Assembly (NCBI GenBank): GCA_964350815.1
Contig: CAYGKW010000001.1
Span: 156,120-220,119, forward strand
Reading direction: 5' to 3'
DNA length: 64,000 nucleotides
Source: an uncultured Rhizobiaceae bacterium
GTDB lineage: Bacteria; Pseudomonadota; Alphaproteobacteria; UBA7879; VGCX01
Part shown: in pieces, positions 41 to 36,426 of the stretch
How positions within the stretch are numbered: position 1 is the stretch's first letter
Layout of the letters: every line of letters begins with the position of its first letter
Notes under the pieces: model-generated
Databases searched by the model: none
Told to the model about the DNA's origin: nothing
What the model saw: the letters and a program-made list of their open reading frames with translations, nothing else
Made by a program: the position numbers and the translations under genes

Positions 41-1129
41 TTATACTTTGGTTGCCCTTTTCTTGGCCCCTAGAATTTGTGCAATCCCTGCCCGGAACTG
101 GTCCTTTTGACCTTTTTCCTTAACAATACCATGTTGAAATAAAAACCAAACCAAAGGGTCTGTTATGCGCCATCCTGAACCATATGATGCAATTTGATCA
201 TTTGGGTAAGTGAGGGAAAAAGTAAAAAACTGGTACTTAGGCAAATGACTTCTTATAAAATGCAATGTATTCGCACCATACCAAGCACCCGTGTAGGCCA
301 TTAACTCCCCGGAAATTTGTTGATTATTACTTTGATCAAATCCATTTTTATGTTCAGAATTTCTAAGCAAAATATTGGCATCTGGTAATAATGGGGCCAA
401 TTTTTCAAAGCTGTGGTATCCAATTGCAAATGGTTTTGAAATTTTCTTTTTCCCAGCCATAGGCGCCTTAAGAACTAACTGTAACAAATCTTCAAAAGCG
501 TTGTATTTCAGAGGTAACGTGGGGATAGGCAACCAATAAAAAAAGGAATCATATTTATCAAAATCAATATTGTTTTTTTCCTCACCAATGTTATGAAAAA
601 CAATTGTTTGAAAATCTGGTGTTGATTTAACCTTTCTTAAGGCTGAATTTGATTTTTCTAAATTTTCAAAACATATTTCCAGATCTTTATTTTCAGAGGG
701 ATTTATTTTTAAACCTAAATTATGGGCTTCATTATCCACAAACACTTGTCGGGCCATTGTAACATAATGCGCCAGTTGTGACGTCATGGCCCCAATAACA
801 CCTATATGAATATAATTCGTTGCAAAAAAATCTTTCGCCAAATTATGGTGGCATGTAGGGCACACCTTTTGCTCTGTCGTATGGGCACATAAATCACATT
901 TTTGACGATCACTATCATTTAACCTTTTCAGCAAGTCTTGATTTTGACCCTCAATCAGTCGCCCTTGTTTTTCTATACCCCCTTTGGGATGATAGTGGTT
1001 ATAAACCGCATCTTCTTCGTGGTCACAAATTTCTGGTATTGACTGACACCGCGCCAACGCTTGCTGCTTTGCAAGCTTTGTAAAACAATGGGGACAGGTA
1101 TATTTTCTTTTTATAGATTCTTTAATCAT
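41..1129 (-). CDS. Hypothetical protein with two N-terminal zinc-ribbon-like CxxC pairs (CPHC..C, CDLC..CPTCH). It is the fourth gene of the vWA/PP2C/kinase operon
   Basis: 362-aa ORF that abuts the kinase gene stop (1131) on the same strand. Cys pairs sit in the first 100 residues. No other recognisable motif. Confidence 0.5.
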   Translation of the reverse strand: MIKESIKRKYTCPHCFTKLAKQQALARCQSIPEICDHEEDAVYNHYHPKGGIEKQGRLIEGQNQDLLKRLNDSDRQKCDLCAHTTEQKVCPTCHHNLAKDFFATNYIHIGVIGAMTSQLAHYVTMARQVFVDNEAHNLGLKINPSENKDLEICFENLEKSNSALRKVKSTPDFQTIVFHNIGEEKNNIDFDKYDSFFYWLPIPTLPLKYNAFEDLLQLVLKAPMAGKKKISKPFAIGYHSFEKLAPLLPDANILLRNSEHKNGFDQSNNQQISGELMAYTGAWYGANTLHFIRSHLPKYQFFTFSLTYPNDQIASYGSGWRITDPLVWFLFQHGIVKEKGQKDQFRAGIAQILGAKKRATKV

Positions 1130-1130
1130 A

Positions 1131-3896
1131 TTAAACCTTAAATGGGTGTACTAACTGTAACTTATTTTGCCAAACTGGATCAATTATTTCTAAGCGATAT
1201 TGCCATTTTTTATTCAGTTTTTGGTTTATCAAAACTTCCATCCTATTCGACCTTTTTGCCTCTATACTACATGGCGGAATTTCACCAATGATAATTGCTT
1301 CAGGATCTTGATGGGCTGGGAACCGATCTTCTACAGCAACTAAGCGCATACGCGGTAAATGATTTTCACTATTTGCGGCTATTTGTAAAATAATTTTATG
1401 AGTAAATCCTTTTCCAAACCCGCGCCATTTGGCCTTTTTTACACGAACGTCATAAGCCATACTTGATATGTTTTGGTCCTTTAATGTATAGGGGTCGCCC
1501 AATAATAAAGGCTGTCCACATATAATTGCTGCTGGCCAAACATGAACATTTACATTTTCAGAAGACAATTTTGGTATTCTGGCCTGGCCAACAGAGTCTG
1601 TTTTTTCAACCAAACAACGATACAAGCATTCAATATCATTATGCCTAACTGCAGAGTTTCCCAAGCTTGCCGTTACCAGGCAACAAGGAATACGGGCATT
1701 GGATTCAGGCCATAACCATCGCGCTGTTATAAAATCTTTTTCATTATGGATTTGCTGCCAGTTTGGTTGGGTGAAATTAATGTTTTTATAATAAGTTTGA
1801 AAAGCTTTGCGAACCTTTGCAGCCTTAAGATCATCTTCAATTAAAGGGGCAAATTTTTCTTCTTCCCAATTTTCAACGATAACAGTTGTCTGATCTTCTT
1901 GAATGGCTCTATATACTTTGCGCCATGTAGATGCCAAAGTTTCTGCAACTTTTACTTTTGGTAAAAATATTTCAAATTCAGGGCGTCCAGCGCATATCTT
2001 TGGATCCCATAAATTTGCTAGCGTTTGCAAATCTGATTTTTCATTGGCTTTTTGGAATTTTTTTAATAATTCATACCGTTTTTGTGATTGAAGAATATGG
2101 TCTTTAAGGGTTTCCCCTAAAAAATTTTCTTCTATAAAATCAGATTCATGCAGGGATGGGTGTTTTGTCCACCAGGCATCTACCATTGCATCACTTTTAT
2201 CAATCAATTCCTTTAGGGAATCGACTGCTGATTTATGTACCCGGGCATCTTGAATGAATTTTTTTTGAGGATCATTTAGCCCAAATTTTTGATATATATC
2301 CTTATTTGAATCCCATAATTTCAAAGCTGTTGCATGTTTTTGTTTTTCATAAGATTCTTTGAATGCACGCCAGGATTCAATGCGTTGACGGGCAATATCC
2401 ACCCGGTCAAAAATTTCTGATTCTGCTGATTTAATACTTTCTGGCCATTGATGCTGAAAATATACTTCCAGGATTTGTCGTTCAAAATCTTCGTCAATAA
2501 TTGGATCCCCAAAAGAATCTTTTTTATCTGCCTTCTGAACAGCCTCTTTTAACCTAGTTAGTGATTGGCGGCGTCGACGAATTTCTTCTAAAAATTCTTT
2601 TAAAGGCTTGCCATTCACACGTTCTGTTGGTGTTAAAGGGAAATAATTTAACTTGTCATCTGTACTCCACCAATCCAAAATTTCTTGATCACTTTTACTT
2701 TGCAAACAAAATTCCTTAAATTGGTCCAATACTTGGATATATTCACACGCTTTTTTTATTTGATCCCTGTGCGTTGTAAAACGACTTTCTTTGTGTAAAA
2801 CCGTATTGGTATTCCATAGCCGGGCGATTTCCCGCATATCCTCAGTTCTAATGGCTTGTTCCAGCTTAACCACATCTTCTGTACGGGCCTGGCCTGCCAC
2901 TTCAGGAAAAACATCTACGCCTGTTTTTTCCTTACGATCACACCAAAAACAGGTATCCCCATACATAAAATGTTGGGAATTATGACTGCACGTATGCAAA
3001 GTTTGAATAACTTCAGTTAAAATTGTTTTCCATTTGCTGGCTGTCAATCTTTCACGGGGATTTACAAAACCGTCATTAAAAGTTTTCAAAAAAGCGTCCC
3101 GAATTTTAGGATGGAGTATTTCTTGGGGTAACGCATACATCGGACTTTGCACCTTACTATTTGGTGCAAAAGGCCATTCTCCTTTTAAAATAGCTGCATC
3201 TCTACTTTCGGGTTCTTCGCCTTCTGGCCACTCTCCACTAAAAGGATGATATCCCAACAACAAAAGGTGAATAATGATAGCCAGCCCAAATCGATCATGG
3301 ACCTCAGTACGATCTGTCTTGGAAAGATTTTTCCCTATAAGTTCATGGGGGGTAAACCCTTCAGATCCGACGGGGCAACGATACACATCGCCTTCTTGCT
3401 GAATTTGGAAAGAATCGGCATCTGTAATGGCAACCAGCGCACGATCATTAATCATAAAATTATCAGTTTTAATATCCCCAACCACATACCCTTTTTTATG
3501 CAAGGCTTCCATAATTGAGGCAATGTTATAAGCCGTAACATGTAGGTAGTGCCAGTTAAAACCTGGGGCATTCCGCTTGCGCAGTTTTGCATTGTAAACG
3601 TGGTTTACCCTTAAAGACCCTGAAACACGCGGCATAATAAAACCACAAAACTGTCCTTGATCATCTTGAATTAACCCTTGGGGCCAAGCAATAGATATAT
3701 GATTTTGACTTTTTGTGGGGTCTTCAGGGGGGTTTTGCACCATCGAAAGGACTTTGCTTTCATAATCGTGACGCGGCGCATGATATATTTTTGCGACAAC
3801 TTCAGGAAGGTTTGTCAGCCAAATCGCGCCCTCGCCCCCACTGTCTAAGCGCTGTTTTAAATCAATTTTCTGGCCTTTATCTTTTATTGAATACAT
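1131..3896 (-). CDS. Hanks-type Ser/Thr protein kinase with a long C-terminal region of unknown function (about 650 aa)
   Basis: Gly-rich loop SGGEGAIW, beta3 lysine in VAKIY, catalytic-loop-like VGDIKTDNF and a DFG-equivalent ITDADS. A Cys cluster (CSHNSQH..CFWC) follows the kinase domain. No TM segments seen. Confidence 0.7.
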   Translation of the reverse strand: MYSIKDKGQKIDLKQRLDSGGEGAIWLTNLPEVVAKIYHAPRHDYESKVLSMVQNPPEDPTKSQNHISIAWPQGLIQDDQGQFCGFIMPRVSGSLRVNHVYNAKLRKRNAPGFNWHYLHVTAYNIASIMEALHKKGYVVGDIKTDNFMINDRALVAITDADSFQIQQEGDVYRCPVGSEGFTPHELIGKNLSKTDRTEVHDRFGLAIIIHLLLLGYHPFSGEWPEGEEPESRDAAILKGEWPFAPNSKVQSPMYALPQEILHPKIRDAFLKTFNDGFVNPRERLTASKWKTILTEVIQTLHTCSHNSQHFMYGDTCFWCDRKEKTGVDVFPEVAGQARTEDVVKLEQAIRTEDMREIARLWNTNTVLHKESRFTTHRDQIKKACEYIQVLDQFKEFCLQSKSDQEILDWWSTDDKLNYFPLTPTERVNGKPLKEFLEEIRRRRQSLTRLKEAVQKADKKDSFGDPIIDEDFERQILEVYFQHQWPESIKSAESEIFDRVDIARQRIESWRAFKESYEKQKHATALKLWDSNKDIYQKFGLNDPQKKFIQDARVHKSAVDSLKELIDKSDAMVDAWWTKHPSLHESDFIEENFLGETLKDHILQSQKRYELLKKFQKANEKSDLQTLANLWDPKICAGRPEFEIFLPKVKVAETLASTWRKVYRAIQEDQTTVIVENWEEEKFAPLIEDDLKAAKVRKAFQTYYKNINFTQPNWQQIHNEKDFITARWLWPESNARIPCCLVTASLGNSAVRHNDIECLYRCLVEKTDSVGQARIPKLSSENVNVHVWPAAIICGQPLLLGDPYTLKDQNISSMAYDVRVKKAKWRGFGKGFTHKIILQIAANSENHLPRMRLVAVEDRFPAHQDPEAIIIGEIPPCSIEAKRSNRMEVLINQKLNKKWQYRLEIIDPVWQNKLQLVHPFKV

Positions 3897-4682
3897 TTAT
3901 GGATTTCCTAAAAATTTTGCAATAATAAGTGTACGATCATCATTTGATCGCTGTTGTAGCCGTTCAGATTTTAAGAACTTTTCAAGCTCTGCATCAATCG
4001 TCTTTTTTGATGGCTTATCTTTTAAAAAAACATCAAACGGTTTGAAAAATCCTATATGTGCCTCATTTAATCGGTGATCAATGGCCACATGGTCCAACCC
4101 ATCTGTTGCCAACGCCACAAAATTAATGGGTTCGCGCTGTACAAATGTTTGAACATCTAAGGTTTCATCTGTAACAAAACTTGTTTCATTAACGTATTCC
4201 CCTTTTTTACCAGAAAACACCAAATCATATTCGTCTTCTATGCCGGAAACCAAAAAACCATCACCCACTTGCAAGCCTAACAAACGATCAGGCATAAAGA
4301 TTGCAGCCACTAATGTGCTTGCATAATCATGGGGGTTTTCTTTTTTCTTTTTTGCTTCTTTTCGAATGTCTTCTCTGATAAGCACAGGGATTTGATGCAG
4401 CTGTTGTAAGGTTTTCTCAGATATATCATTTAAATTCAATTCTTTCATATACTGCATTGCTTTTTTTACAGTAAGCTGCGCCCCTTCTTTTGCTTTTGCA
4501 ACAGAACCTGCCCCATCCGCAACAATGGCGATCACCTGATCGGGGCCTATTTTTTCAATTAAATAAGCATCTTGGCATTCGCTATCATGCTGTCTGATTT
4601 GTTTTGCAACGGCACAAGCGCCTGTAATCCATGTCATATCATGTTCCTGTTGCTGCCCAACCTGATACAGAAGGAAGTTCAA
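3897..4682 (-). CDS. PP2C-family Ser/Thr protein phosphatase
   Basis: 261 aa with PP2C metal-binding motifs (IAIVADGAGS, QVGDGFLV, ALATDGL). Directly adjacent to the kinase and overlaps the vWA gene by 44 nt. Confidence 0.65.
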   Translation of the reverse strand: MNFLLYQVGQQQEHDMTWITGACAVAKQIRQHDSECQDAYLIEKIGPDQVIAIVADGAGSVAKAKEGAQLTVKKAMQYMKELNLNDISEKTLQQLHQIPVLIREDIRKEAKKKKENPHDYASTLVAAIFMPDRLLGLQVGDGFLVSGIEDEYDLVFSGKKGEYVNETSFVTDETLDVQTFVQREPINFVALATDGLDHVAIDHRLNEAHIGFFKPFDVFLKDKPSKKTIDAELEKFLKSERLQQRSNDDRTLIIAKFLGNP

Positions 4683-5325
4683 TCATATCACCACCCACCC
4701 TGTTTGTAGAAATACGGCGTACAGAGGATGATAGCCAACGAAATAACTCTTTAAATTTCAGGTCTTGCAATTGGATGGGGGGGCGACTTGCTGGTGCCAC
4801 ACGTTCAAGAATTTCCATATCAGCACCTTCCACAGCAATTGTAAAAAAACTGATACGTTTGTTGGCTTCAAGATCGCTAACACGTGCGGCGGCTTCTTTC
4901 CATTTCTCCCCATCAGTTGGGGCCCCATCTGTAACAAGAAAAACCCAGGGGCGATAATATTGCACGCCATTTGCTCTGTACACTTGTTTACGTTCATCTA
5001 AAGCATCTAAACCCATATCAATCGCACTTCCTAATGGGGTTTTTCCAGCCGTATTTAATATAGGGGGCGTAAAATCATCAATTGTAACAAAAGGTTGTAG
5101 GATATTAACTTCTTTGCCAAAGCTGATAATACTTAACTCTACTCTTAATGCCGCTAATTCATCTTGCTCTACGTCAAATTTAAATTCAGCCAAACCTTGA
5201 TTTAATGATTCAATAGGCGCCCCCTCCATCGAAGCAGAGGTGTCTAGGATTAAAACAACCGGGCATCTATTTTCTGGATTATCCACAAATTCTGGCTTTA
5301 TTAATGACATCATTACCTCGTGCAA
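4639..5325 (-). CDS. von Willebrand factor A (vWA) domain protein, TerY-like
   Basis: MIDAS DxSxS motif in VVLILDTSASMEG, followed by LVTDGAPTDG. No signal peptide or TM, so it looks cytoplasmic. First gene of the operon. Confidence 0.75.
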   Translation of the reverse strand: MHEVMMSLIKPEFVDNPENRCPVVLILDTSASMEGAPIESLNQGLAEFKFDVEQDELAALRVELSIISFGKEVNILQPFVTIDDFTPPILNTAGKTPLGSAIDMGLDALDERKQVYRANGVQYYRPWVFLVTDGAPTDGEKWKEAAARVSDLEANKRISFFTIAVEGADMEILERVAPASRPPIQLQDLKFKELFRWLSSSVRRISTNRVGGDMIELPSVSGWAATGT

Positions 5326-5566
5326 TTATTGTTTTAAGTTTATACTCTACCATAAGGTATTTTATATGTTAATAAATAGTGTTATAGTTAGACTTAAGAG
5401 CACTGCAGATTTTATGTCACACTATAGTGGTAAAAATGCTACAAAACGAAAAAAATACAAAAAAATTAGTATTTTACGTTTACACTAAGACCTAAAAGTG
5501 GCAATCTGTGTTGTAGAAGTAACAAGTCTTATGACTTAAGAAACAATAAACTGGGAGAGTCTCGAT

Positions 5567-6124
5567 ATGGCTGAAAGTACTCAACATAAGTTAGACCGCG
5601 TACGCCCTCCGCGCGTACAAATTACATATGACGTAGAAGTCGGTGATGCAATTGAAATGAAAGAATTGCCTTTCGTTGTAGGTATCATGGCTGATCTTTC
5701 TGGGGACAGAGACCCCGAAAAGGCAATGAAAGCACTTAAAGAACGTAAATTCACAGAAATTGACCGTGATAACTTTAATGATATTATGGCTGACATTACA
5801 CCAAGAGCAGCAATGCGTGTTGAAAACCGCCTTGGTGGTGGTGAAGAAAATGAAGACAGTTCCTTAAGTGTTGCTCTTAACTTTAAAAACATGGAAGATT
5901 TTGATCCGGTAAACATTATTAAACAAGTTGAGCCTATGCGCAAACTATACGAAGCGCGCACTAAGCTTAGTGACCTTATGTCAAAGCTTGACGGTAATGA
6001 TGACTTGGAAGGCATGCTTCAAGATGTTCTTGAAAACACCGAAGTTCGCGAAGAAGTTAAAAAGAACTTAGGTGAAGTTAAGAAGGACGAAGGTGGCGAA
6101 GAAGACGCTAAGCCTAAAAAGTAG
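5567..6124 (+). CDS. tssB: T6SS contractile sheath small subunit TssB (VipA)
   Basis: 185 aa with the canonical N-terminus ...PPRVQITYDVEVGDAIEMKELPFVVGIMADLSGD. Followed directly by tssC. Confidence 0.88.
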   Translation: MAESTQHKLDRVRPPRVQITYDVEVGDAIEMKELPFVVGIMADLSGDRDPEKAMKALKERKFTEIDRDNFNDIMADITPRAAMRVENRLGGGEENEDSSLSVALNFKNMEDFDPVNIIKQVEPMRKLYEARTKLSDLMSKLDGNDDLEGMLQDVLENTEVREEVKKNLGEVKKDEGGEEDAKPKK

Positions 6125-6177
6125 GTTGAACAATAAATAAAAGTAACATACGCTAGTCTTAATATAGGGAGGGCAAA

Positions 6178-7659
6178 ATGGCTGATGAAAAAAAAGCACA
6201 AGGTCAGGCAGCTGAAGGCCAAGAAAACCTAACGGTTTTAGACCAGATTATTCAAAAAGGAAAACTGGCCCGCGACGAAGAACAACTTGTTTATGCACAA
6301 GATATGGTGGATGAATTTGTTGAACAGATTCTTCAAGCAGGGGATACAGTTAGCAACAACACAATTTCATTCATTAACAAGCGCATTCAAGAAGTTGACT
6401 TGCTATTAAGTCAACAGTTAGATGAAATCTTACACCATGAAAACTTTCAAAAAGTGGAAGCAACATGGCGCGGGATGAATTATCTTGTTATGAATTCAGA
6501 AACAAGTACGAAACTTAAACTACGTGTTTTCAACGTTTCCAAAAAAGAACTTCGCGATGATCTTGAAAAAGCAGTAGAATTTGATCAAAGCGTTCTTTTC
6601 AAGAAAATTTACGAGGAAGAATATGGAACATTCGGGGGGAACCCTTATTCATGTCTGGTTGCAGATTATGAATTTGGACCTATTGCCCCAGACATGTCAC
6701 TTCTAACAAAATTGTCAAACGTTGCAGCAGCGGCACATGCCCCTGTGATTTCAGCAGCATCACCTACTTTGTTTGACATGGATGACTTTACTGATTTAGG
6801 TAAGCCTCGTGATTTGGCCAAAATCTTTGAAGGAACAGACAAAATCAAATGGCGTTCATTCCGTGAAAGCGAAGATTCACGTTATGTTGTATTAACAATG
6901 CCACGTGTTTTGATGCGTCTTCCTTACGGGCCGAACACGAATCCTGTAGAAGGCTTGAACTATGAAGAAGTTGTTGATGGTACAACATTAAAAACTTTCA
7001 CATGGGGAAACCCATCTTACATGATGGCACAAAGAATTACTGATGCTTTCGCGAAATATGGCTGGACAGCGGCAATCCGCGGTGTTGAAGGTGGGGGTCT
7101 TGTTGAAGGCTTACCAAGTTACACTTTCAAAACAACTGATGGTGATTTGGCTTTGAAATGCCCAACACAAATTGCAATTACTGACCGTCGTGAAAAGGAA
7201 TTAAGTGATCTTGGCTTCATTTCATTATGTCACTGTAAAGGAACTGACAAAGCGGCTTTCTTTGGTGGGCAAACTGTTCAAAAACCAAAGAAATACAATA
7301 CGCCACAAGCGAATGCGAATGCTGCAACATCTGCACGCATCCCATATTTGCTGGCGGCGTCACGCTTTGCGCATTACATTAAGTCAATCATGCGGGATAA
7401 AATTGGGTCCTTTATGACTCGTGATCAAGTTCAACGCTATTTGCAAACTTGGATCTCTCAGTATGTATTGTTAAATGATGATGCATCACAATCAATGAAA
7501 GCTCGCTTCCCACTTCGTGAAGCCCGTATTGATGTATTTGATGTACCAGGCGAACCTGGAAAATTCCGTGCAACAGTATTCTTAAGGCCGCACTTCCAAT
7601 TGGAAGAATTGACAGCGTCCATCAGGCTTGTTGCTGAATTGCCTCCACCTGCAGGTTGA
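6178..7659 (+). CDS. tssC: T6SS contractile sheath large subunit TssC (VipB)
   Basis: 493 aa that matches the TssC family along its full length (LMRLPYGP, GWTAAIRGVEGGG...). Confidence 0.9.
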   Translation: MADEKKAQGQAAEGQENLTVLDQIIQKGKLARDEEQLVYAQDMVDEFVEQILQAGDTVSNNTISFINKRIQEVDLLLSQQLDEILHHENFQKVEATWRGMNYLVMNSETSTKLKLRVFNVSKKELRDDLEKAVEFDQSVLFKKIYEEEYGTFGGNPYSCLVADYEFGPIAPDMSLLTKLSNVAAAAHAPVISAASPTLFDMDDFTDLGKPRDLAKIFEGTDKIKWRSFRESEDSRYVVLTMPRVLMRLPYGPNTNPVEGLNYEEVVDGTTLKTFTWGNPSYMMAQRITDAFAKYGWTAAIRGVEGGGLVEGLPSYTFKTTDGDLALKCPTQIAITDRREKELSDLGFISLCHCKGTDKAAFFGGQTVQKPKKYNTPQANANAATSARIPYLLAASRFAHYIKSIMRDKIGSFMTRDQVQRYLQTWISQYVLLNDDASQSMKARFPLREARIDVFDVPGEPGKFRATVFLRPHFQLEELTASIRLVAELPPPAG

Positions 7660-7716
7660 TCCTAGATCAGCCCAGGTTGGCGATTATGTGGAATAGAATA
7701 AGAACATAGGTGTAAG

Positions 7717-8247
7717 ATGAAGAACGATATAGTTGTAATGATGGTTGAAAATGTTGACGCAATGTGTGGAAGCGTCAAGTACGAAGGATATGCAAGAGGA
7801 ATTCGTCTTCTTGAATTTCCTGAAGTCCAAACCATTAACTCTGCAGAAGCATCCCACAGTATCGGAATTCGTCCAAACAACGGGGAATGTTTACCCATTA
7901 CTGTACGCACACACTATGACAAAAGTGTTCCTAAAGGCCTTGAAGCCATGGTTAAAGGTACAAACCTAACGAAGATTAGTATTTTCCACCTTGTATCAAC
8001 TGGCGGAGACACACTTACCTTAAATAGGTATATTGAAATGTCAGATGTTTATTTAATTAAATACAGCCTGCACTATTTTGATGCATTTAACCACGAATCA
8101 CCGCAAGGTGGGGTTGCCACATACACATTTAAATTTGATGAGTTTTCATCTGTTGCCAATGTGTTTGATGATCAAATGCAAGAACAAGGTAAAACTGGTT
8201 ACATGACCAACAATACAAAACGCTTAACAGGTAACACAGGCGGATAA
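7717..8247 (+). CDS. hcp: Hcp (T6SS inner tube protein)
   Basis: 176 aa, the right size for Hcp. N-terminus MKNDIVVMMVENVDAMCGSVKYEGYARGIRLLEF.. follows the Hcp pattern. Sits between tssC and tssE. Confidence 0.6.
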   Translation: MKNDIVVMMVENVDAMCGSVKYEGYARGIRLLEFPEVQTINSAEASHSIGIRPNNGECLPITVRTHYDKSVPKGLEAMVKGTNLTKISIFHLVSTGGDTLTLNRYIEMSDVYLIKYSLHYFDAFNHESPQGGVATYTFKFDEFSSVANVFDDQMQEQGKTGYMTNNTKRLTGNTGG

Positions 8248-8271
8248 TTTTTTTAAAAAGCGGAGTAAGCC

Positions 8272-8928
8272 ATGGTAGAAAGACCATACAATTCATTAGA
8301 AAGCAGTCAAGTTAACGATGGGCAGATTGTTGCCTCTCCTACGTGTTTACTAACTTCAACAGTTCATGAAGGTGGGGTTAGCGTTGGAACTATTGAAAAT
8401 GCACATGAAGTATTTTATTACTTTATTTCTGCTTCCCGTGCATCATTACCTGGGTATCATGGACTTCATGAATCCACAGCAAAGATTCGTTTTAGTGCTT
8501 TGAACATTGCATTACACAACAACAGCTATACAGAACCTTTCATGAAGGCTGTATACAGTGGGGCAAGTATTGGGGATATTGAAATCACAAGTCTTCAACA
8601 CTCTGGTGAAGAATCTTTACCAAGCTTCACAATGCAATACAAAAATTGTCGCCCAGTAAGCGGTAAAGTTTCCAGATTAAACGTTGGCGGTCGCTTAGGT
8701 GAAAATGTCATGAGTCGTGGGCATTATGAAGATCGCCTTGATATTGTCAATCGTTCTGTTGATGCAGATGATCCGTATAATCGCACAGCAGAAGTTACAG
8801 CATGTTGCCTTAAAATTCTTTTTGATCAGGTATCCATTGTTTATCATGCATTAACTGAAACTGGTGAAGTTGACGGTCAAATTGCAGGTGGATTTAACTT
8901 GGTTAAAAACACAACAGAGCTTGAATAA
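8272..8928 (+). CDS. Hypothetical protein, possibly a divergent second Hcp-like paralog
   Basis: 218 aa. The central and C-terminal segments (PFMKAVYSGASIGDIEITSLQHSGEE...; TAEVTACCLKILFDQ) resemble Hcp beta-strand patterns. Embedded in the T6SS operon. Confidence 0.3.
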   Translation: MVERPYNSLESSQVNDGQIVASPTCLLTSTVHEGGVSVGTIENAHEVFYYFISASRASLPGYHGLHESTAKIRFSALNIALHNNSYTEPFMKAVYSGASIGDIEITSLQHSGEESLPSFTMQYKNCRPVSGKVSRLNVGGRLGENVMSRGHYEDRLDIVNRSVDADDPYNRTAEVTACCLKILFDQVSIVYHALTETGEVDGQIAGGFNLVKNTTELE

Positions 8929-8935
8929 ATAGGTC

Positions 8936-9493
8936 GTGGCAAGAAAGTGGACAGACAAAGGGGCAGATGCCCCCTTATTCGACAAGCTTCGTGATGAAAA
9001 TCCACAAACCAAAGAAGAACATCCTATCTTTAAAAAATATGATCGCAAGGAACTTTTAGTATCTGTACAACAAGAAGTTTCAAACATCTTAAACACCCGT
9101 TGTAAAATGCCATACGAAGAGTACAAAAATTTGGATCCTTCTGATCTAGAGTATGGATTTCCTGAACTATTTGGCCTGCCTGACCAATCTTATGCTGACC
9201 CACGATCCCCAGAAGGGGCAGATAAAATGGCAGATTTAATTGCCAATGCCATTGAAATATTTGAACCTAGGTTAGCAAATATTTCTATCGAAATACAAGA
9301 TTTCCACAAACAAAATCAATCTTTATCTGTTGGTGTCAGTGGAGATTTAGTGATAGGGGAAATACGCGAACCAATTTCATTCCCTGTTTCTGTTCAAGAC
9401 TATGGATCTGTCGCAACGCAAGAAAAAGTTGGGTATGACACAACTGCCAAAATAGAGTATAATAAAAATGATTCTGAGGGGGCAGATGAATGA
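8936..9493 (+). CDS. tssE: T6SS baseplate protein TssE (gp25-like)
   Basis: Carries the LFDKLRDE, ILNTR, FGLPD and FEPRL motifs typical of TssE. Apparent GTG start. Its 3' end overlaps tssF. Confidence 0.8.
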   Translation: MARKWTDKGADAPLFDKLRDENPQTKEEHPIFKKYDRKELLVSVQQEVSNILNTRCKMPYEEYKNLDPSDLEYGFPELFGLPDQSYADPRSPEGADKMADLIANAIEIFEPRLANISIEIQDFHKQNQSLSVGVSGDLVIGEIREPISFPVSVQDYGSVATQEKVGYDTTAKIEYNKNDSEGADE

Positions 9494-11298
9494 ATGACTT
9501 TCACGAAAAACATTTACAGTATTATCAGCGTGAAATGTCCTTCCTACGTAAAATGGGGGGCATCTTTTCTGCCAAATACCCTAAAATTGCCAAACGTCTT
9601 GGCCTTAGTGATACAACTGCGTCAGACCCGCATGTTGAACGACTCATTGAATCTTTTGCCTATCTAACTTCCTATTTACAAAAAGATATAGACAACCAAT
9701 TTCCACGCATTTCATCCGCGTTATTAAATACATTATACCCCCAGCAAGTAAGCTTGATTCCGCCCATGAGTATTTGCCAATTTGAACCGGACCCAGAGGC
9801 TGGATTAACAACTGCCTACGATATTCCACGAAACTTTTCCATGTATGTTGAAGGCGATACAGGGGATGTCAGCCGATTTAAAACAGCCTACCCTGTTGAA
9901 ATGTGGCCTATTAAAGTAACTGATATTGCCATGGTAAAATCAAATCTTTATGATCTTGGGGAAGAGCTGACAAAGCATACTTATGTTTTACGCATTAAAT
10001 TAAAATCTTTATCCGAAGATTTAAGTATCTTAAATTTAAAAAAACTTCGGTTTTTTATTAACATGCCGCGTGCACAAGCGAATGTTTTGTATCAACTTTT
10101 GTTTGAAGAATCTATGAAAATTGGTGTGGTTGGGGCAGATGATAAACCAGCCTATATCACCCCAAAGGATAGTATTTCACAAGTTGGGTTCTCGCCTGAT
10201 GAATCTGTTTTACATGTTCCCAAAAATGGACACCCGGCCTATGCCCTTTTACAGGAATACTTCTTATTTCAAAAAAAGTTTATGTTTTTTGATATTGATA
10301 ACCTAAATTTCAACAACGCCGGACAAACAGCAGAAATTTTAATTCCTTTGTGTCATTCACAAGATGCCAAAAGTTTGGTTTTTGGGGAACGATCCCTTCT
10401 TTTAAATTGCAGCCCTATTGTTAATTTATTTTATAAAACATCTGAACCCATTCGCCTGGATCACCAACGTGTTGAATATCGTTTAATTGCTGACCATCGG
10501 CGTGAAATGACAACAGAAATTCACAGCATTGACCGTGTCTTTTGTTCAGGGGAAGAGGAAAAAGACACAATTGAAATTGATCCTTATTTTTCATACAACC
10601 ATCATTCTTTAAGCGAAGATAAAATGGGGTTTTGGCATGCACGACGGGTCCCTGCAGCAAATAAAAACATACCCGGAACAGATATGCAAATTTCTTTTGT
10701 AAACTTAAATTTTTCACCAAATAGTCCCCCTGTTGATGTGGCTTATGCCCGGGTTTTGTGTACAAACCGACAACTTGCGCCGACTGTCCCTGCGAATGCA
10801 ATTTTAAATGAAGATGAGGGAACCCCAACCAAGTCTATACGTTGTTTATATCAACCTACTGATACAACATATCCTTCCGAAGAAGGGGCAACCCAATGGC
10901 AATTGATATCCCAACTTGCTTTGAATTATTTATCTTTGTCTAACAATGAAAAAAGCTTGGACGCCTTAAAGGAAATGTTACGCTTGTATTCCGGTGGCGG
11001 GAAAAAAATTAATGATGTTGAAATTAACAGCATGATAAAAATGGATTGCGAACCAATTGTTCGCCGATTTGGAAAAGATGCTTGGCGCGGTTTTACAAAA
11101 GGAACATCTGTCACCCTTACAGTTGATGAAGGTGCCTCTGCAAGCTTAGGATCTTTCTTATTTTCATCTGTGCTTGCCCATTTTTTTGGTTTATATACAA
11201 CCATAAATTCTTTTGTAGAGGTATCTATTAAAAGCACACGACGGGAAGGAGTATGGAAAAAATGGCCACCGATCGCCGGCGCACAAGAACTTCTGTAG
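9490..11298 (+). CDS. tssF: T6SS baseplate protein TssF
   Basis: 602 aa with an N-terminus YYQREMSFLRKMGGIFSAKYPKIAKRL typical of TssF. Lies between tssE and tssG. Confidence 0.8.
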   Translation: MNDFHEKHLQYYQREMSFLRKMGGIFSAKYPKIAKRLGLSDTTASDPHVERLIESFAYLTSYLQKDIDNQFPRISSALLNTLYPQQVSLIPPMSICQFEPDPEAGLTTAYDIPRNFSMYVEGDTGDVSRFKTAYPVEMWPIKVTDIAMVKSNLYDLGEELTKHTYVLRIKLKSLSEDLSILNLKKLRFFINMPRAQANVLYQLLFEESMKIGVVGADDKPAYITPKDSISQVGFSPDESVLHVPKNGHPAYALLQEYFLFQKKFMFFDIDNLNFNNAGQTAEILIPLCHSQDAKSLVFGERSLLLNCSPIVNLFYKTSEPIRLDHQRVEYRLIADHRREMTTEIHSIDRVFCSGEEEKDTIEIDPYFSYNHHSLSEDKMGFWHARRVPAANKNIPGTDMQISFVNLNFSPNSPPVDVAYARVLCTNRQLAPTVPANAILNEDEGTPTKSIRCLYQPTDTTYPSEEGATQWQLISQLALNYLSLSNNEKSLDALKEMLRLYSGGGKKINDVEINSMIKMDCEPIVRRFGKDAWRGFTKGTSVTLTVDEGASASLGSFLFSSVLAHFFGLYTTINSFVEVSIKSTRREGVWKKWPPIAGAQELL

Positions 11299-12311
11299 TA
11301 GAGCGTGCTTATAAAGACGCAGATAAATTTGAATTTCATGCAATGGTCAAATTGTTGGAAAGCATGGAGAAAGACTGTACCCCTTTAGGCGAAGGCCCAG
11401 ATCCAACAAAAGAAGCATTACGCCTGCAAGCGCGTGTTGCCGAAGGGTTTCCAAACACAGATATTTTTAAACTTATTGACCCCAAAACAAAAGAAATTCC
11501 ACCTTTATTGATAACTAATTTCTTGGGCATTGCTGGGGCACATGGCCCCTTGCCTTCCCCTTATACCCAGCAGATAATAGAACGTACATCAAGACGTGAT
11601 ACAGGGTTCAGAGATTTTATTGATATCTTTAATCATCGGTTAATATCTTTATTACATCGCATACGAAAAAAACATTGGATTGGCATTTCCAACCAGCCTT
11701 CAGAAGAATCCTTAATGGGAAAATGTTTGAAGGCTTTACTTGGAATCTTTAACCCTTATTTAGAAGACCGCTTAGGTGTTCCTGACCAAAGCTTAACACA
11801 TTATGCCGGTTTATTATGGCAACGCCCTAGATCTGCATTTGGACTACGTCAACTTCTTGAAGGTTTTTTTCGAATGCCTGTTGAAGTTCAAGAATTGAAA
11901 GGCAAATGGAATTTTGTACCCCACGACCAACTTACAAGTATTGGAAGTCAGGGAAAATTTAATGTGCTTGGGCAATCTGCCGTTATTGGCTCAAGGTTTT
12001 GGGATCAACAAGCCCTATTCACTGTAAAAATTGGCCCAATGGATTTAGATCAGTATGTTGACTTCTTGAAACCTGGAAAATCATGGCGTACAATCTGTAG
12101 TATAATTCGATATTATGTAGGTAATGATCAAGATTTCATGATAAACTTAGTTTTAAAAAAAGAACAGGTTCCAAAGCCCAGGCTGGGTTATGGTGTTGCT
12201 ATTGGATGGACAAACTGGTTGAATCGCACAAAAACTGAATCCTATATAGATGATAATCAATGCCAATTAACAACACGTTCTTTTAAAGTTTCAGCAGGAG
12301 GCCATAATTAA
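11253..12311 (+). CDS. tssG: T6SS baseplate protein TssG
   Basis: N-terminal FEFHAMVKLLE motif, equivalent to FDFFQAVRLLE in TssG. Overlaps the tssF 3' end, so the start may be at 11262 instead. Confidence 0.75.
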   Translation: MEKMATDRRRTRTSVVERAYKDADKFEFHAMVKLLESMEKDCTPLGEGPDPTKEALRLQARVAEGFPNTDIFKLIDPKTKEIPPLLITNFLGIAGAHGPLPSPYTQQIIERTSRRDTGFRDFIDIFNHRLISLLHRIRKKHWIGISNQPSEESLMGKCLKALLGIFNPYLEDRLGVPDQSLTHYAGLLWQRPRSAFGLRQLLEGFFRMPVEVQELKGKWNFVPHDQLTSIGSQGKFNVLGQSAVIGSRFWDQQALFTVKIGPMDLDQYVDFLKPGKSWRTICSIIRYYVGNDQDFMINLVLKKEQVPKPRLGYGVAIGWTNWLNRTKTESYIDDNQCQLTTRSFKVSAGGHN

Positions 12312-14974
12312 TGCAAAATTTACAATCTTTAATTGGAAACTTAAACACAACTTGCAAAAGATGTTTGGAAGAATCTGCACAATTATGTATTACCAATACA
12401 AATGCAACTGTTGATATTGAACATTTACTATTTCAAATTCTGGAAAAGCCTGCAACGGATCTTTCTGTTATTGCAAAATACTATGAAATTGATTTAAAGC
12501 GTGCAAAGCAACAGCTTCAAAATGCAATAAATGATTTCAAACGTGGCAACAATAAAACACCTTCCATGTCTGCTCAGTTAGTTAAATTATTGGAAAGGGC
12601 GTGGGTTATCACTTCCTTGAATCTGAAACAAACTCAGGTACGCTCAGCCGCGATATTAATGGCGATTTTAAAAACTGAAGAATTATTAGGCGTAATTGTA
12701 AATAGCTGCCAAGAATTATTAAAAATTCCACGTAATAAACTGGAAGAAGATATTCTAGAATTAATTAAATCCAGCCCAGAAGATGTAGGGGAAGGAAATT
12801 TAAGCAGCAATACAGGGGGCAGCAAAAGCAGTTCTTCTGATGGAAAATCCCCGACGCAAGCCTTGGATAAATTTACAATTGATCTTACACGCCAAGCCCG
12901 TGAAGGGAAAATTGATCCCATTGAAGGGCGTGATTCAGAAATCCGCCAGATGCTGGATGTTTTGGGACGCCGGCGTCAAAACAACCCCATTTTAACAGGG
13001 GATGCAGGTGTTGGGAAAACAGCAGTTGTTGAAGGCCTTGCCTTGCGCATTGCAAATGGGGATGTTCCTGATAGTTTGAAAAAAGTAAGCATTCGCACTT
13101 TGGATCTTGGTTTACTTGAAGCCGGGGCTGGTATGAAAGGTGAATTTGAAAACAGGCTGAAATCCGTTATTCAAGAAGTACAAAGTTCTTTAACCCCAGT
13201 TATTTTGTTTATTGATGAAGCCCATACATTAATCGGCGCCCAACAAAATGCCCAAAATGATGCAGCCAACCTTTTAAAGCCTGCTTTGGCCAGGGGTGAA
13301 TTGCGAACGATTGCTGCAACCACTTGGGATGAATATAAAAAATTCTTTGAAAAAGACGCAGCCCTTACCCGTCGTTTCCAAGTTATAAAAGTTGAAGAGC
13401 CTGACGAAGAAACAGCTGTGAAAATGTTGCGCTGTTTAACAGAAAAGTTAGAACACCATCACAAAGTTTTGATACTGGATTCTGCCATTAAAGATGCTGT
13501 TCGTTTGTCCACTCGATATATTGGGGGCCGCAAATTACCAGACAAGGCAGTCAGTGTTTTAGATACTGCCTGCGCACGCGTACACTTAGCACAAAACGCA
13601 ACCCCTGAAGCCGTTGAAACATTAACCCGTGATTTGGAACTTTTAGAAATTGAAAAATCACGCTTACAAAAAGAAGAATTAAGTGGCCATGTTCACCAAG
13701 ATCGATTGGCCCAAATTTCTGTCGATGCGCAAACAAAACAAAAAGAATTGGATGAGGTAAAAAAAACTTGGGAAGAAGAATTAAACCTTGTAAAAGAAAT
13801 TAACCAACTTCACAACAACATCTTAGAAATAAATGAAAAAAATGGCCCTGACCATCACGACCTAAAAGATTTAAAAATAAAAATCAGTAAACTTAAAAAA
13901 GATTTGGAAACCAAACAAGGGGAAAAAGGGTTGGTCCCTGCATGTGTTGATGGCAATGTTGTTGCCCAAGTTGTTGCAGGGTGGACGGGCATTCCTTTAG
14001 GTAAAATGTTGCGCGATGAAATCAATACCGTGTTAACCTTAAAAGATATTATGGCCAATCGCTTGATCGGGCAAAAACAAGCTGTGGATACCATTGCAAA
14101 ACATATTGTGACATACCGTGCAAACTTAGATGAGCCTGGAAAACCAGTAGGCGTCTTTTTATTAGTTGGACCCAGCGGTATTGGGAAAACAGAAACAGCC
14201 TTGGCTTTGGCTGACACACTATATGGCGGGGAACGAAATCTTGTCACCATTAACATGTCTGAATACCAAGAATCTTATACTGTTTCTTCTTTGAAAGGGT
14301 CGCCTCCCGGATATGTAGGATATGGTGAAGGGGGTGTTCTGACCGAAGCCGTCAGACGCAACCCATACAGCGTTGTTCTTTTAGATGAAATTGAAAAAGC
14401 CCACCCGGACGTAATGGAATTATTCTATCAAGTTTTTGATAAAGGAATCTTGGAAGATGCAGAAGGTATTGAAATTGATTTTAAAAATACCGTTATTTTA
14501 ATGACAACCAATTTGGCATCTGAAACCATTATGAAGGAATGCAAAAATCCGAAAAAAATGCCGGATGCCAAGAAGGTTTCAGATACCATTCGTCCTGAAT
14601 TGGCTGCCCATTTTAAACCTGCTTTGCTTGGGCGCATGACAATTGTTCCGTATTATCCTTTAACAAGTGAAGAAATATCTGAAATTGTAAAACTTAAATT
14701 GGATCGCATCAAAAGTCGATTTGAAGGAAATCATGGGGCTGACTTTTCTTACAGCAAAGATGTCATTAAATTCATCACAGATCGATGTGATGATCCTGAT
14801 TCCGGGGCACGTAATATTGATTACGTTATTAACCAAAACTTACTTCCCCTTTTATCTGCAGAAGTTTTAAAACATATTGCTGATGAAACACCCTTTGGCA
14901 GTATAAAAGTTTCCATCAAACGGGATGAATTTATATGTGATTTTGAGGCATCAAAAATTGCAAACAAAGCTTAA
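12311..14974 (+). CDS. clpV: T6SS AAA+ ATPase ClpV (TssH)
   Basis: 887 aa with two Walker A motifs (GDAGVGKTAV and GPSGIGKTE) and ClpB-like architecture. Its ATG overlaps the tssG stop. Confidence 0.9.
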   Translation: MQNLQSLIGNLNTTCKRCLEESAQLCITNTNATVDIEHLLFQILEKPATDLSVIAKYYEIDLKRAKQQLQNAINDFKRGNNKTPSMSAQLVKLLERAWVITSLNLKQTQVRSAAILMAILKTEELLGVIVNSCQELLKIPRNKLEEDILELIKSSPEDVGEGNLSSNTGGSKSSSSDGKSPTQALDKFTIDLTRQAREGKIDPIEGRDSEIRQMLDVLGRRRQNNPILTGDAGVGKTAVVEGLALRIANGDVPDSLKKVSIRTLDLGLLEAGAGMKGEFENRLKSVIQEVQSSLTPVILFIDEAHTLIGAQQNAQNDAANLLKPALARGELRTIAATTWDEYKKFFEKDAALTRRFQVIKVEEPDEETAVKMLRCLTEKLEHHHKVLILDSAIKDAVRLSTRYIGGRKLPDKAVSVLDTACARVHLAQNATPEAVETLTRDLELLEIEKSRLQKEELSGHVHQDRLAQISVDAQTKQKELDEVKKTWEEELNLVKEINQLHNNILEINEKNGPDHHDLKDLKIKISKLKKDLETKQGEKGLVPACVDGNVVAQVVAGWTGIPLGKMLRDEINTVLTLKDIMANRLIGQKQAVDTIAKHIVTYRANLDEPGKPVGVFLLVGPSGIGKTETALALADTLYGGERNLVTINMSEYQESYTVSSLKGSPPGYVGYGEGGVLTEAVRRNPYSVVLLDEIEKAHPDVMELFYQVFDKGILEDAEGIEIDFKNTVILMTTNLASETIMKECKNPKKMPDAKKVSDTIRPELAAHFKPALLGRMTIVPYYPLTSEEISEIVKLKLDRIKSRFEGNHGADFSYSKDVIKFITDRCDDPDSGARNIDYVINQNLLPLLSAEVLKHIADETPFGSIKVSIKRDEFICDFEASKIANKA

Positions 14975-14984
14975 AAGTTAACAA

Positions 14985-17556: not shown

Positions 17557-18525
17557 ATGACAAAAAATATTTCCCCAGAATTTTTAGAAAAACTTCGTCT
17601 GATACGTAAAAAAAACGAAGTTGATAAAACCAATGAAAATGACATCAATAGTGTTGAATCTTATAATGCTTATGATGTCGTTGATAAAGTTGATCTTCCC
17701 GAAGGGTTTGACCCTGGTGAAGCAGAAGAAAATGCACAAGAAGAAAGTCTTGAGGGTCCTTTCCCACCTGACATGACCCAGGCCCCAAAGAACCCTGCTG
17801 CTGAAAAGAAAGAGGAGGATATAGATCCAAATGCCTTGGATTCAGGGTATCAAGAAATCAAAGATGCTGATGACAATATCATTCAAAAAATTCCCTATGA
17901 GAATAAAAAAATCCATGGAGATGTCGAAATTTTTGATAGCCAAGGAAATCTTATTCAAACCATACCCTACAATCAGGGAATAATTGAAGGTGTTTCAAAA
18001 GCATACAACAGTGATGGTAATATAATGCAAGAAGTTACCTTCAAGGCTGGTCAAAAAAATGGTCGGGGGATTTTTTATAATAATGGTGTCAAAGCAGCGG
18101 AGATGGTTTATGAAAATGATGAAATTAATGGGCCTTCTGTTTTTTATACACCAAGCGGTGGAATAAGCACCATTTGTTATTATAAAGATAGTTTAATGCA
18201 TGGCGAAATGACAGCTTATGATGATAAAAAAGCGATTGTAAAAAAAACCATGTATGAAGAAGGAAAAATGCATGGCCCTTCGTATGTCTATTATCCCAGC
18301 GGTCAAATTTTTGAAGAAGCTTATTATGAAAAGGATCAACTATCTGGCAAAGTTCTTAATTATTATGAAAATGGAGAAGTTCTTTCAGAAAAAAAATATG
18401 AAGAAGGTAAATTAATTTCAGAATTAAGATACGACACAAATGGCAAACGGACAGATGATAATGAATATGAAGGGGACTATCCCAAATCAGCCCGCAATGC
18501 CTTAAAAGATATTGAAGGATCATAA
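17557..18525 (+). CDS. MORN-variant / YwqK-family repeat protein; VgrG-linked cargo, adaptor or immunity candidate
   Basis: 322 aa with an acidic N-terminal region and then about 8 tandem Y..NG...E.-type repeats (YENGEVLSEKKYEEGKLISELRYDTNGK). Starts 4 nt after the vgrG stop. Confidence 0.5.
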   Translation: MTKNISPEFLEKLRLIRKKNEVDKTNENDINSVESYNAYDVVDKVDLPEGFDPGEAEENAQEESLEGPFPPDMTQAPKNPAAEKKEEDIDPNALDSGYQEIKDADDNIIQKIPYENKKIHGDVEIFDSQGNLIQTIPYNQGIIEGVSKAYNSDGNIMQEVTFKAGQKNGRGIFYNNGVKAAEMVYENDEINGPSVFYTPSGGISTICYYKDSLMHGEMTAYDDKKAIVKKTMYEEGKMHGPSYVYYPSGQIFEEAYYEKDQLSGKVLNYYENGEVLSEKKYEEGKLISELRYDTNGKRTDDNEYEGDYPKSARNALKDIEGS

Positions 18526-35697: not shown

Positions 35698-35773
<76 letters not shown>

Positions 35774-35822
35774 CTTAAAATCAAGGACTACAGACGTTCG
35801 TACTATTCTTATAAAACTCTTC

Positions 35823-35842
35823 GGTGCTACCCTGGTGCTACT
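35823..35842 (+). repeat. Inner 20-bp direct repeat GGTGCTACCCTGGTGCTACT (copy 1)
   Basis: Identical 20-mer at 49801..49820, just upstream of the integrase start codon. Each copy sits just inside the att repeats. Possible arm-type or secondary att site. Confidence 0.5.
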
Positions 35843-35889
35843 TTTGGAATATTAAAAAGCTATGCCCAAAAATAAAAGGGATCTTAATT

Positions 35890-36426
35890 ATGAAAAAAAA
35901 CTCAAATAAAATAATCCTTGGAATTCCAGATAATCCAGAAGTTAAGCAAGCTGTAGGAGAACTGGCTATTGCGCATGGAAATATGGAAATGATTTTTATT
36001 TACTGTCTAAAAACTATAGAAGACGTAAAGCCAATACAAGCTATGAAGCAATACAGGAACTCAAGTGGCGAGAAGAAAGGTAAGAAAATTAGTACTAGAG
36101 GAAGAATCACACGTATACTGGATAACAACGTGCCTGAAACTCCTCCTTATAGTGAAGCAAAAGAAAAAATAAATGACTATATAGAAGAATCCTGGAAACT
36201 AACTCATATTAGGGATAGATATCTTCATTGTTTTTGGGGGAAAAGAAATGACTCAGGAAACTGGGAAATAAGCACTGACCACAATATTTGGAAACCATTA
36301 CCTGCTGCCGATGAAATAACAAAACATGCTAAGGAAATTAGTAAATTTTCAGAAGAATTAAACAAAGAAAGACTGAATAAGAATGGAGCGTTCGAATTTA
36401 TAAGAGCGAAATTATCAAAAGCTTGA
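35890..36426 (+). CDS. Hypothetical protein (island cargo)
   Basis: Start reassigned to the ATG at 35890 (MKKNSNKIIL...); the upstream extension runs across the 20-bp repeat. No recognisable motifs. Confidence 0.5.
   Translation: MKKNSNKIILGIPDNPEVKQAVGELAIAHGNMEMIFIYCLKTIEDVKPIQAMKQYRNSSGEKKGKKISTRGRITRILDNNVPETPPYSEAKEKINDYIEESWKLTHIRDRYLHCFWGKRNDSGNWEISTDHNIWKPLPAADEITKHAKEISKFSEELNKERLNKNGAFEFIRAKLSKA

Follow-up and report, generated by a model that had tools for sequence, protein, structure and literature searches.

The TerY-P triad reportedly goes back to Anantharaman et al. in 2012, and TerY-P is said to have been described as an antiphage system by Gao et al. in 2020. Control of the type VI secretion system (T6SS) by a Hanks kinase together with a PP2C phosphatase is established for PpkA/PppA. 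Here, we analyze a four-gene operon next to T6SS genes in a 64,000-nucleotide stretch of DNA (hereafter, the window) from an uncultured Rhizobiaceae bacterium (assembly GCA_964350815.1, contig CAYGKW010000001.1, positions 156,120 to 220,119). In the order of transcription, the operon encodes a protein with a von Willebrand factor A (vWA) domain, a PP2C phosphatase, a Ser/Thr kinase and a fourth protein with a double zinc ribbon. We slightly favor a model whereby this operon is a wholly cytoplasmic Ser/Thr phospho-switch that lacks a forkhead-associated (FHA) protein and serves as an accessory T6SS regulator; the mechanism itself is inferred.

Several described systems resemble this operon. TerY-P triads are defined by a TerY-like vWA protein, a PP2C phosphatase and a kinase with a fused zinc ribbon, and they ride on other machineries as add-on modules; in the antiphage TerY-P that was validated by experiment, the kinase is of the OB-fold type (PMC11090510). 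The Escherichia coli YegI kinase and PphC phosphatase are biochemically active enzymes (bioRxiv 10.1101/819920). The DO-GTPases described by Kaur, Burroughs, Iyer and Aravind in 2020 come with two zinc ribbons and with components bearing fibronectin type III (FnIII) repeats, and an actinobacteria-restricted "third theme" of these systems combines a DO-GTPase with a kinase–zinc ribbon–beta-rich protein, a PP2C phosphatase and a standalone vWA protein (PMC7159879).

Hidden Markov model searches with Pfam gave significant matches for the products of the first three genes (VWA, E = 3.4e-9; PP2C_2, E = 2.3e-37; Pkinase, E = 7.6e-11), in agreement with the identities proposed in the initial annotation of the window. 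A TerY-like vWA protein, an adjacent PP2C phosphatase and a kinase–zinc ribbon are all present, and homology to the proteins of ter plasmids is detectable; thus, the proposal of a vWA–PP2C–kinase triad of the TerY-P kind also stands. To the ter-plasmid TerY-P genes, the vWA protein has 28.7–30.8% identity (E about 1e-12), the phosphatase 23% (5e-8) and the kinase 23%, with the homology of the kinase extending up to the zinc ribbon. The corresponding values for E. coli K-12 are 52% for the vWA protein and YegL (5e-67), 33% for the phosphatase and PphC (5e-36) and 31% over 321 aa, including the ribbon, for the kinase and YegI (5e-44). Triads with the same gene order are also numerous in cyanobacteria, where the vWA protein has about 53% and the kinase 41–49% identity to their window counterparts, and where the kinases bear WD40, TPR, IMS or FGE domains. 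Judged by these identities, the window triad is far closer to YegL/PphC/YegI than to plasmid TerY-P, and the nearest characterized relatives are the chromosomal E. coli genes rather than the ter-plasmid genes to which the label TerY-P had pointed.

The likeness to YegL/PphC/YegI includes the gene order, the homology of all three proteins and the same catalytic residues in the kinase (K, D141 and D159). However, YegI is a two-pass inner-membrane kinase, whereas the window kinase is soluble and carries helical repeats and FnIII-like domains, and the E. coli module has neither a gene for a fourth, pseudo-GTPase subunit nor a T6SS neighbor. With TerY-P, the window operon shares the protein set, its order and the attachment of the triad as an add-on to another system. 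Nevertheless, this relationship is distant, because the window locus has neither a TerY-C domain nor ter genes, and the partner system is a T6SS. In place of the OB-fold of the antiphage TerY-P kinase, the window kinase has a zinc ribbon, helical repeats and FnIII-like domains. Among the PADLOC TerY-P models, the TerY model gave E = 0.047 and neither the phosphatase nor the kinase model gave a match; other PADLOC matches were weak (the kinase to mad6 and PD-T4-6 and the phosphatase to PDC-M21C). "TerY-P-like" is, therefore, an apt description of homology and architecture, by which membership in a defense system is not established.

The evidence for a link to the T6SS comes from relatives of the operon. 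These loci (referred to by numbers preceded by L) were gathered via exact-protein look-ups, a scan of GTDB species genomes and a metagenome scan; the genome scans used an alignment of the full-length kinase and brought many cyanobacterial kinase-only matches. All loci were scored by tblastn with the window proteins. The module with the long kinase has T6SS genes as neighbors in no fewer than seven lineages, which fall into two alphaproteobacterial clades that are deeply separated (about 40% and 70% GC), and it does so in two architectures. In A1, the operon is divergent from tssB, as in the window species (L001, L103), L002, L010/L097, L003/L099, L009, L005 and L108, the last being a 71%-GC alphaproteobacterium in whose kinase tblastn detected no similarity to the C-terminal region of the window kinase. 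In A2, found in L092 and L101/L102 (68–69% GC), the module lies downstream of vgrG-ywqK(MORN)-PAAR, with clpV, vgrG, MORN/ywqK, a DUF4280 (PAAR-like) gene, vWA, PP2C and kinase following each other in this order on a single strand. In the high-GC clade, three of the three sampled loci are T6SS-linked, and they use both architectures. Between A1 lineages, the N-terminal domains of the kinases are 45–57% identical, and the neighbors on the far side of the A1 loci vary (rluC-dnaX, MlaD or a gene for an outer membrane protein). Because the association recurs in two clades and in two gene orders, chance is an unlikely explanation.

Genes of the MORN/YwqK type add to this pattern. YwqK belongs to the MORN-repeat family, and ywqK is a conserved partner of vgrG in Holosporales (PMC8163844). 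A homolog lies between vgrG and the triad in L092 (7216–8013) and L101 (3910–4701; MORN_2, 8.5e-23) and directly behind the fourth gene in L023 (6609–7802) and L031 (13437–14213), with 28–32% identity to the window protein in tblastn. A MORN_2/YwqK protein may, as an aside, be a physical link or a substrate that joins the module and the T6SS.

Several observations weigh against a coupling of the module to the T6SS. At L006, L008, L014/L015, L090, L091, L093 and L031, no T6SS gene lies within 10 kb and, therefore, the module persists without adjacency; the neighbors at such loci are housekeeping genes (maf, rng, sdh, fliL/fliM, gpsA and groEL), and L014/L015 retain the synteny of the window on the dnaX side in the absence of a T6SS. 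The adjacency of the A1 type in the low-GC clade could derive from one ancestral event, and the neighbor-joining trees are crude. Moreover, T6SS genes are missing next to the closest triads, which are found at about 60 cyanobacterial loci and as yegL-pphC-yegI in E. coli, and, thus, T6SS coupling is not general to the triad family. Finally, the genes for the T6SS membrane complex as well as tssK and tssA lie outside the window: no tssA, tssJ, tssK, tssL or tssM was found anywhere in the 64 kb. In Holosporales, however, T6SS genes are scattered, with tssB-tssC-hcp, tssG-tssF, tssK-L-M-A and ywqK-vgrG usually forming separate loci (PMC8163844). Because of this dispersal, non-adjacency is compatible with coupling, and the partial T6SS gene set of the window is consistent with the scattered, possibly non-standard T6SS of Holosporineae (PMC8163844, PMC11909080). 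The initial annotation had left the choice between a T6SS regulator, a defense system or both, and had named conservation of the operon in genomes that lack a T6SS, among different neighbors, as a sign of a pure defense island. The regulator idea now has the comparative support of two clades and two architectures, with the T6SS-free loci speaking against it; the operon does occur away from the T6SS in some genomes, but among housekeeping genes rather than in defense islands. Altogether, the comparative sequence data make it somewhat more likely than not that the module is functionally coupled to the T6SS.

The kinase combines, in this order, a Hanks kinase domain, a zinc ribbon, helical repeats with conserved Trp residues and two FnIII-like domains. 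The G-loop GGEG, K36, D141-x-K-x-x-N146, D159-x-DSF and GSEGFTPxE are conserved in 19–29 homologs, and the kinase looks catalytically competent. The Cys and His residues of the zinc ribbon are invariant in the alignment of homologs, and the ribbon region aligns with the C-termini of YegI and the ter-plasmid kinase. The helical array consists of about six or seven repeats of roughly 50–60 aa with one conserved Trp each; in an AlphaFold2 model (m2543c9179372), the array region has a predicted local distance difference test score (pLDDT) of 85.6, and the Trp columns are invariant or near-invariant across homologs. The C-terminal region, initially regarded as uncharacterized, resolves into helical repeats and FnIII-like domains. 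A search of this region and of the fourth protein for GAP1 or any other Pfam family gave no match. About 30 full-length homologs of the kinase were found, with 29–82% identity, and uncultured Alphaproteobacteria and metagenome-assembled genomes of Holosporaceae are the only sources of full-length homologs.

The vWA protein is YegL/TerY-like and alignable to E. coli YegL. As initially described, its metal ion-dependent adhesion site (MIDAS) is intact and the TDGxPTD motif is present (DTSAS...T...TDGAPTD). Its C-terminal tail is rich in Ser/Thr and conserved (WLSSSVRRISTN..LPSVSGW). As a side observation, the last ~40 residues (4639–4760; WLSxSVRRVSxG..LPxVxGW) are conserved from Holosporales-like bacteria through to cyanobacteria, and this pattern of conservation suggests that YegL-type triads may all share a motif here that serves in docking or accepts a phosphate. 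The phosphatase has the metal-binding motifs ADGAGS, GDG, TDG and DDRT.

Pfam returned nothing significant for the fourth protein, and PF19993 did not score it. In BLASTP, however, this protein gives a full-length alignment (E = 4e-16) to the protein in fourth position in L008, which has the same two N-terminal zinc ribbons and matches DO-GTPase2 (PF19993) with E = 1.3e-9. The zinc-ribbon cysteines of the window protein (C12/C15/C28 and C78/C81/C90/C93) are invariant across homologs, in support of the two ribbons noted at the outset. An exhaustive profile search with the fourth protein retrieved 2,870 representative relatives, with E ≤ 1e-30 for 467, and the canonical GxxxxGK[ST] is kept in 145 of the 155 top relatives. 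The window protein has GAMTSQ in place of this G1 motif, VFHNIGEE where active relatives have FFDxxGED (G3) and YHSFEK in place of xKLD (G4); in addition, the clade to which it belongs has a deletion of ~34 residues in the switch-I region. Among the top members of the family, fewer than about 5% show this loss of G1, G3 and G4. Because these three motifs are lost and switch-I is shortened, the fourth protein is, as judged from its sequence, a pseudo-GTPase derived from the DO-GTPase2 family. The AlphaFold model of this protein is poor (pLDDT 51); it retrieves GTPase folds, which we take only as consistent with the sequence evidence. Thus, the fourth gene, previously listed without a described role, encodes a degenerate member of a described family. 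It is a clean example of a conflict-system GTPase that was inactivated and retained, probably as a scaffold. A strict tie between P-loop loss and T6SS adjacency was considered and rejected, as the P-loop is also lost in L014/L015, L090 and L091, which have no adjacent T6SS. Likewise, long proteins containing the fourth-gene domain are not kinase fusions, as PF19993 alone was found in them.

With the third theme of the DO-GTPase/GAP1-N2 systems, the window operon shares a protein of the double-zinc-ribbon GTPase family together with an adjacent PP2C phosphatase and a standalone vWA protein, and the entire accessory set (a kinase–zinc ribbon–beta-rich protein, PP2C and standalone vWA) is present. 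The fourth protein has the homologous GTPase domain behind two zinc ribbons that marks the DO-GTPase2 family, but not the functional GTPase motifs. Also, the third theme is defined by a GAP1 partner and was reported as actinobacterial, whereas the window operon is alphaproteobacterial, GAP1-less and T6SS-linked, with a GTPase that has been inactivated; no GAP1 Pfam match at E ≤ 0.1 was obtained for any of the four proteins, and the operon contains no further gene. The window operon is an alphaproteobacterial relative of the third theme.

In the T6SS threonine-phosphorylation pathway (PpkA/PppA/Fha1, TagQRST) of Pseudomonas, Agrobacterium and Serratia, T6SS genes likewise come with a Hanks kinase and a PP2C phosphatase as well as a vWA domain, and by analogy the proposed logic would be the same, i.e., reversible phosphorylation gating assembly. 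However, PpkA sits in the membrane, bears a periplasmic vWA domain and works via an FHA protein or TssL. The window proteins are cytoplasmic and separate, are accompanied by an extra pseudo-GTPase and have no FHA protein within the window, and the window kinase, unlike PpkA, is of the YegI/TerY-P lineage. All four proteins lack hydrophobic segments (in the kinase, no 19-mer exceeds 1.6 on the Kyte-Doolittle scale), and the module is, therefore, cytoplasmic. No FHA domain was found in any scanned open reading frame (ORF) of the window, in line with the absence of an FHA protein from the operon as originally stated, and the role of the adaptor is thus left free.

We suggest the following mechanism. 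The helical-repeat/FnIII region of the kinase would dock on or sense a component of the T6SS or a cue from within the cell, whereupon the kinase would autophosphorylate, as YegI does, and phosphorylate its target. The conserved, RRxS/T-rich vWA tail is an attractive candidate for this target, the alternative being a protein of the baseplate or sheath, VgrG or YwqK. The MIDAS domain of the vWA protein may act as a phospho- or metal-dependent adaptor in place of the FHA protein of PpkA/PppA/Fha, the PP2C phosphatase would reset the switch, and the pseudo-GTPase would be a nucleotide-independent zinc-ribbon scaffold in which the nucleotide switch became dispensable. The functional outcome would be a post-translational gating of T6SS assembly or firing. 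A more specific idea, which we put forward tentatively and hold to fall just short of probable, is that a YegI-type TerY-P triad and a pseudo-GTPase form a dedicated cytoplasmic T6SS regulator of Alphaproteobacteria, including Holosporales endosymbionts, that replaces PpkA-PppA-Fha and in which the vWA protein serves as the adaptor.

Proximity to the T6SS could instead reflect co-location or co-transfer of a stand-alone TerY-P/DO-GTPase conflict or antiphage system, in which the FnIII/helical region senses an invader and phosphorylation triggers the response. The triad has the architecture by which TerY-P is defined (PMC11090510), and the DO-GTPase2 family was described in predicted conflict systems with variable FnIII sensors (PMC7159879). 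The kinase C-termini of the cyanobacterial relatives are indeed highly variable (WD40, TPR, FGE, IMS), one of these relatives is carried by a conjugative plasmid, with an integrase gene and an HNH gene close by, toxin–antitoxin and Fic cassettes are inserted within the L010 operon, and the weak PADLOC matches to mad6, PD-T4-6 and PDC-M21C point in the same direction. Yet the PADLOC TerY-P models miss the triad, the validated TerY-P kinase is of the OB-fold type (PMC11090510), and these two observations also speak against the defense reading as first proposed for the window. In addition, the operon has no GAP1 partner, no live GTPase and no effector gene, loci without a T6SS are flanked by housekeeping genes instead of defense islands, the carriers look like obligate intracellular symbionts that are little exposed to phage, and T6SS adjacency recurs in two architectures and two clades. 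We consider a defense function unlikely. A general cytoplasmic signaling module that, like YegL/PphC/YegI, serves stress, growth or host interaction and whose T6SS adjacency is inherited synteny without coupling appears, if anything, a little less plausible still. It would account for the close homology of all three triad proteins to an E. coli module that is not linked to a T6SS, for the lack of adjacency in about half of the sampled alphaproteobacterial lineages, one locus being divergent from fliL/fliM, and for the synteny in L014/L015. Mere inheritance fits poorly, however, with adjacency that is retained while the other flank varies, that is found at kinase identities of 45–57% and in genomes of 40% and of 70% GC, and that takes two gene orders, one of them co-directional and right behind vgrG-ywqK-PAAR; moreover, ywqK-like genes trail the module at loci in which no further T6SS gene was detected.

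An effect on the T6SS could also be transcriptional rather than post-translational and be exerted via the shared 256-bp divergent promoter region by a hypothetical transcription factor. A1 loci share the divergent arrangement with tssB, and blocks of the intergenic sequence are conserved among close relatives. But Pfam detects no DNA-binding domain in any of the four proteins, the A2 architecture places the triad at the vgrG end without a shared promoter, promoter-like matches are no more common than in shuffled sequence, and the intergenic sequence is not conserved in distant lineages. Altogether, transcriptional control seems highly improbable, and post-translational regulation of the T6SS by the module is the explanation that we prefer.

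All components of this module come from families that have been described. The apparent novelty lies in the conserved association of YegI-type TerY-P triads with the T6SS, the long-kinase architecture of Alphaproteobacteria and an inactivated DO-GTPase2 protein as a fourth subunit; in our literature search, no paper was found that ties TerY-P or YegI-type triads to the T6SS. The T6SS is conserved in nearly all Holosporineae and is the main candidate tool by which these bacteria manipulate their protist hosts (PMC11909080), and the module is a concrete and testable candidate regulator of this T6SS. If the regulatory model is correct, the module would be the first control point known for the secretion system by which Holosporales are thought to interact with their hosts and would provide the first physiological role for the widespread YegL/PphC/YegI (TerY-P-like) family. 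It would also extend control of the T6SS by phosphorylation beyond PpkA/Fha to a design that is independent of FHA proteins and of the membrane.

The gene boundaries underlying this analysis largely agree with the initial annotation. The six-frame list of ORFs contains four successive minus-strand ORFs (41..1129, 362 aa; 1131..3896, 921 aa; 3897..4682; 4639..5325), and their coordinates were borne out together with the two junctions, i.e., the kinase start that abuts the PP2C stop (3896/3897) and the single-base gap between the kinase stop and the start of the fourth gene (1129/1131). By contrast, the 44-nt overlap of the vWA and PP2C genes rests on a TTG start at 4682 and is an artifact of choosing the longest ORF, because the sequence context, gene callers and the alignment with PphC all place the PP2C start at ATG 4637. 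This codon lies one base past the vWA stop (TGAtATG), gene callers use it in a public copy of the identical contig (246 aa), and E. coli PphC aligns from residue 1 of the 246-aa product (MSWRL.. against MTWIT..). Similarly, the longest vWA ORF reaches TTG 5325, but the gene most probably starts at ATG 5310 (223 aa), which is preceded by GAGG. The operon thus spans 41–5310, and the spacer to tssB (5567–6124) measures 256 bp instead of 240 bp (Table 1).

Table 1. Coordinates of the operon, its parts and the adjoining T6SS genes in the window
Feature	Coordinates	Strand	Basis
vWA gene	4639..5310	-	Pfam VWA; 52% identity to YegL; start codon evidence
PP2C gene	3897..4637	-	Pfam PP2C_2; PphC alignment; start context TGAtATG
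Kinase gene, whole (921 aa, soluble)	1131..3896	-	Pfam Pkinase; full-length homologs
Kinase catalytic domain (about aa 8-300)	2997..3875	-	Conservation; YegI alignment
Zinc ribbon right behind the kinase domain	2940..2990	-	Invariant C303, H309, C316, C319
Helical-repeat array (kinase aa about 339-702)	1791..2882	-	AlphaFold2 model; Trp columns
Tandem pair of FnIII-like beta-sandwich domains, kinase C-terminus (aa about 714-916)	1149..1757	-	
Fourth protein (362 aa), two zinc ribbons and degenerate DO-GTPase2-type domain	41..1129	-	BLASTP; motif alignment; profile search
Divergent intergenic region between vWA and tssB (256 bp)	5311..5566	.	Sequence; arrangement kept in L001-L005, L009, L010, L099, L103, L108
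T6SS genes tssB, tssC, hcp, hcp-like, tssE, tssF, tssG, clpV, vgrG	5567..17552	+	Pfam
MORN_2-repeat (YwqK-family) protein behind vgrG	17557..18525	+	Pfam MORN_2 1.5e-19

The plus-strand neighbors of the operon are T6SS genes according to Pfam (VipA, 2.4e-54; VipB, 1.7e-131; TssF, 3.4e-175; TssG, 9.2e-82; AAA_2/ClpB; Phage_GPD, 1.2e-67), as expected from the divergent arrangement that had been proposed. On the other side of the operon, the contig continues with housekeeping genes (a pseudouridine synthase gene, dnaX, ybaB and recR) and, therefore, the four genes sit at the edge of the T6SS cluster and not within it. The remainder of the window contains the housekeeping genes ligA, recN, bamD, sodB and mreBCD-pbp2-rodA, genes for sugar and lipopolysaccharide metabolism and an island bounded by an integrase gene. 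In the intergenic region upstream of tssB, scans with promoter and terminator consensus sequences gave matches that were no more common than in shuffled sequence. Conserved blocks were seen among close relatives alone, and the intergenic alignment contained no motif that is kept beyond them. A sigma-54-like TGGCA..TTG element upstream of tssB was rejected, as its spacing and GC dinucleotide do not fit.

Some further observations concern the T6SS genes and the relatives of the operon. Past tssC lie two small genes, one with a weak Hcp match (7717–8247; E = 2.4e-7) and one without a Pfam match (8272–8928); the L009 counterpart of the latter is weakly Hcp-like, and the two may be a divergent tandem Hcp pair. 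The VgrG protein of L092 (2525–7219) has an N-terminal extension of ~900 aa without a Pfam match before the Phage_GPD/gp5 core, and this extension may be an evolved effector or adaptor domain. In both the E. coli module and the long-kinase module, the PP2C–kinase junction is a hotspot for insertions: yegJ occupies it in K-12 (bioRxiv 10.1101/819920), a Fic-domain gene and a HigB/HigA pair are inserted exactly there in L010 (8249–9993), and a Sel1-repeat gene separates the PP2C and kinase genes in L002 (9025–9846). In E. coli K-12 (L096, 2147674–2153128), yegL-pphC-yegI lies beside yegD, a gene of the HSP70 family. An HSP70-containing theme exists among the DO-GTPase/GAP1-N2 systems (Kaur et al., PMC7159879) and, by analogy, the pairing of yegD with the E. 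coli triad may not be accidental.

The integrative island of the window (35698–49798) adjoins a tRNA-Lys gene (35698–35773) and carries the integrase gene on the minus strand (48623–49798) as well as a Toprim/AAA_25 primase-like gene (45091–47073). It also encodes, on the minus strand, a polymorphic toxin of 2,109 aa that has a WHH/colicin-DNase nuclease at its C-terminus (38258–44587) and is followed by a SUKH/SMI1 immunity gene (37780–38271). The GC content of the toxin region is 42–46% compared to about 36% in the surroundings.

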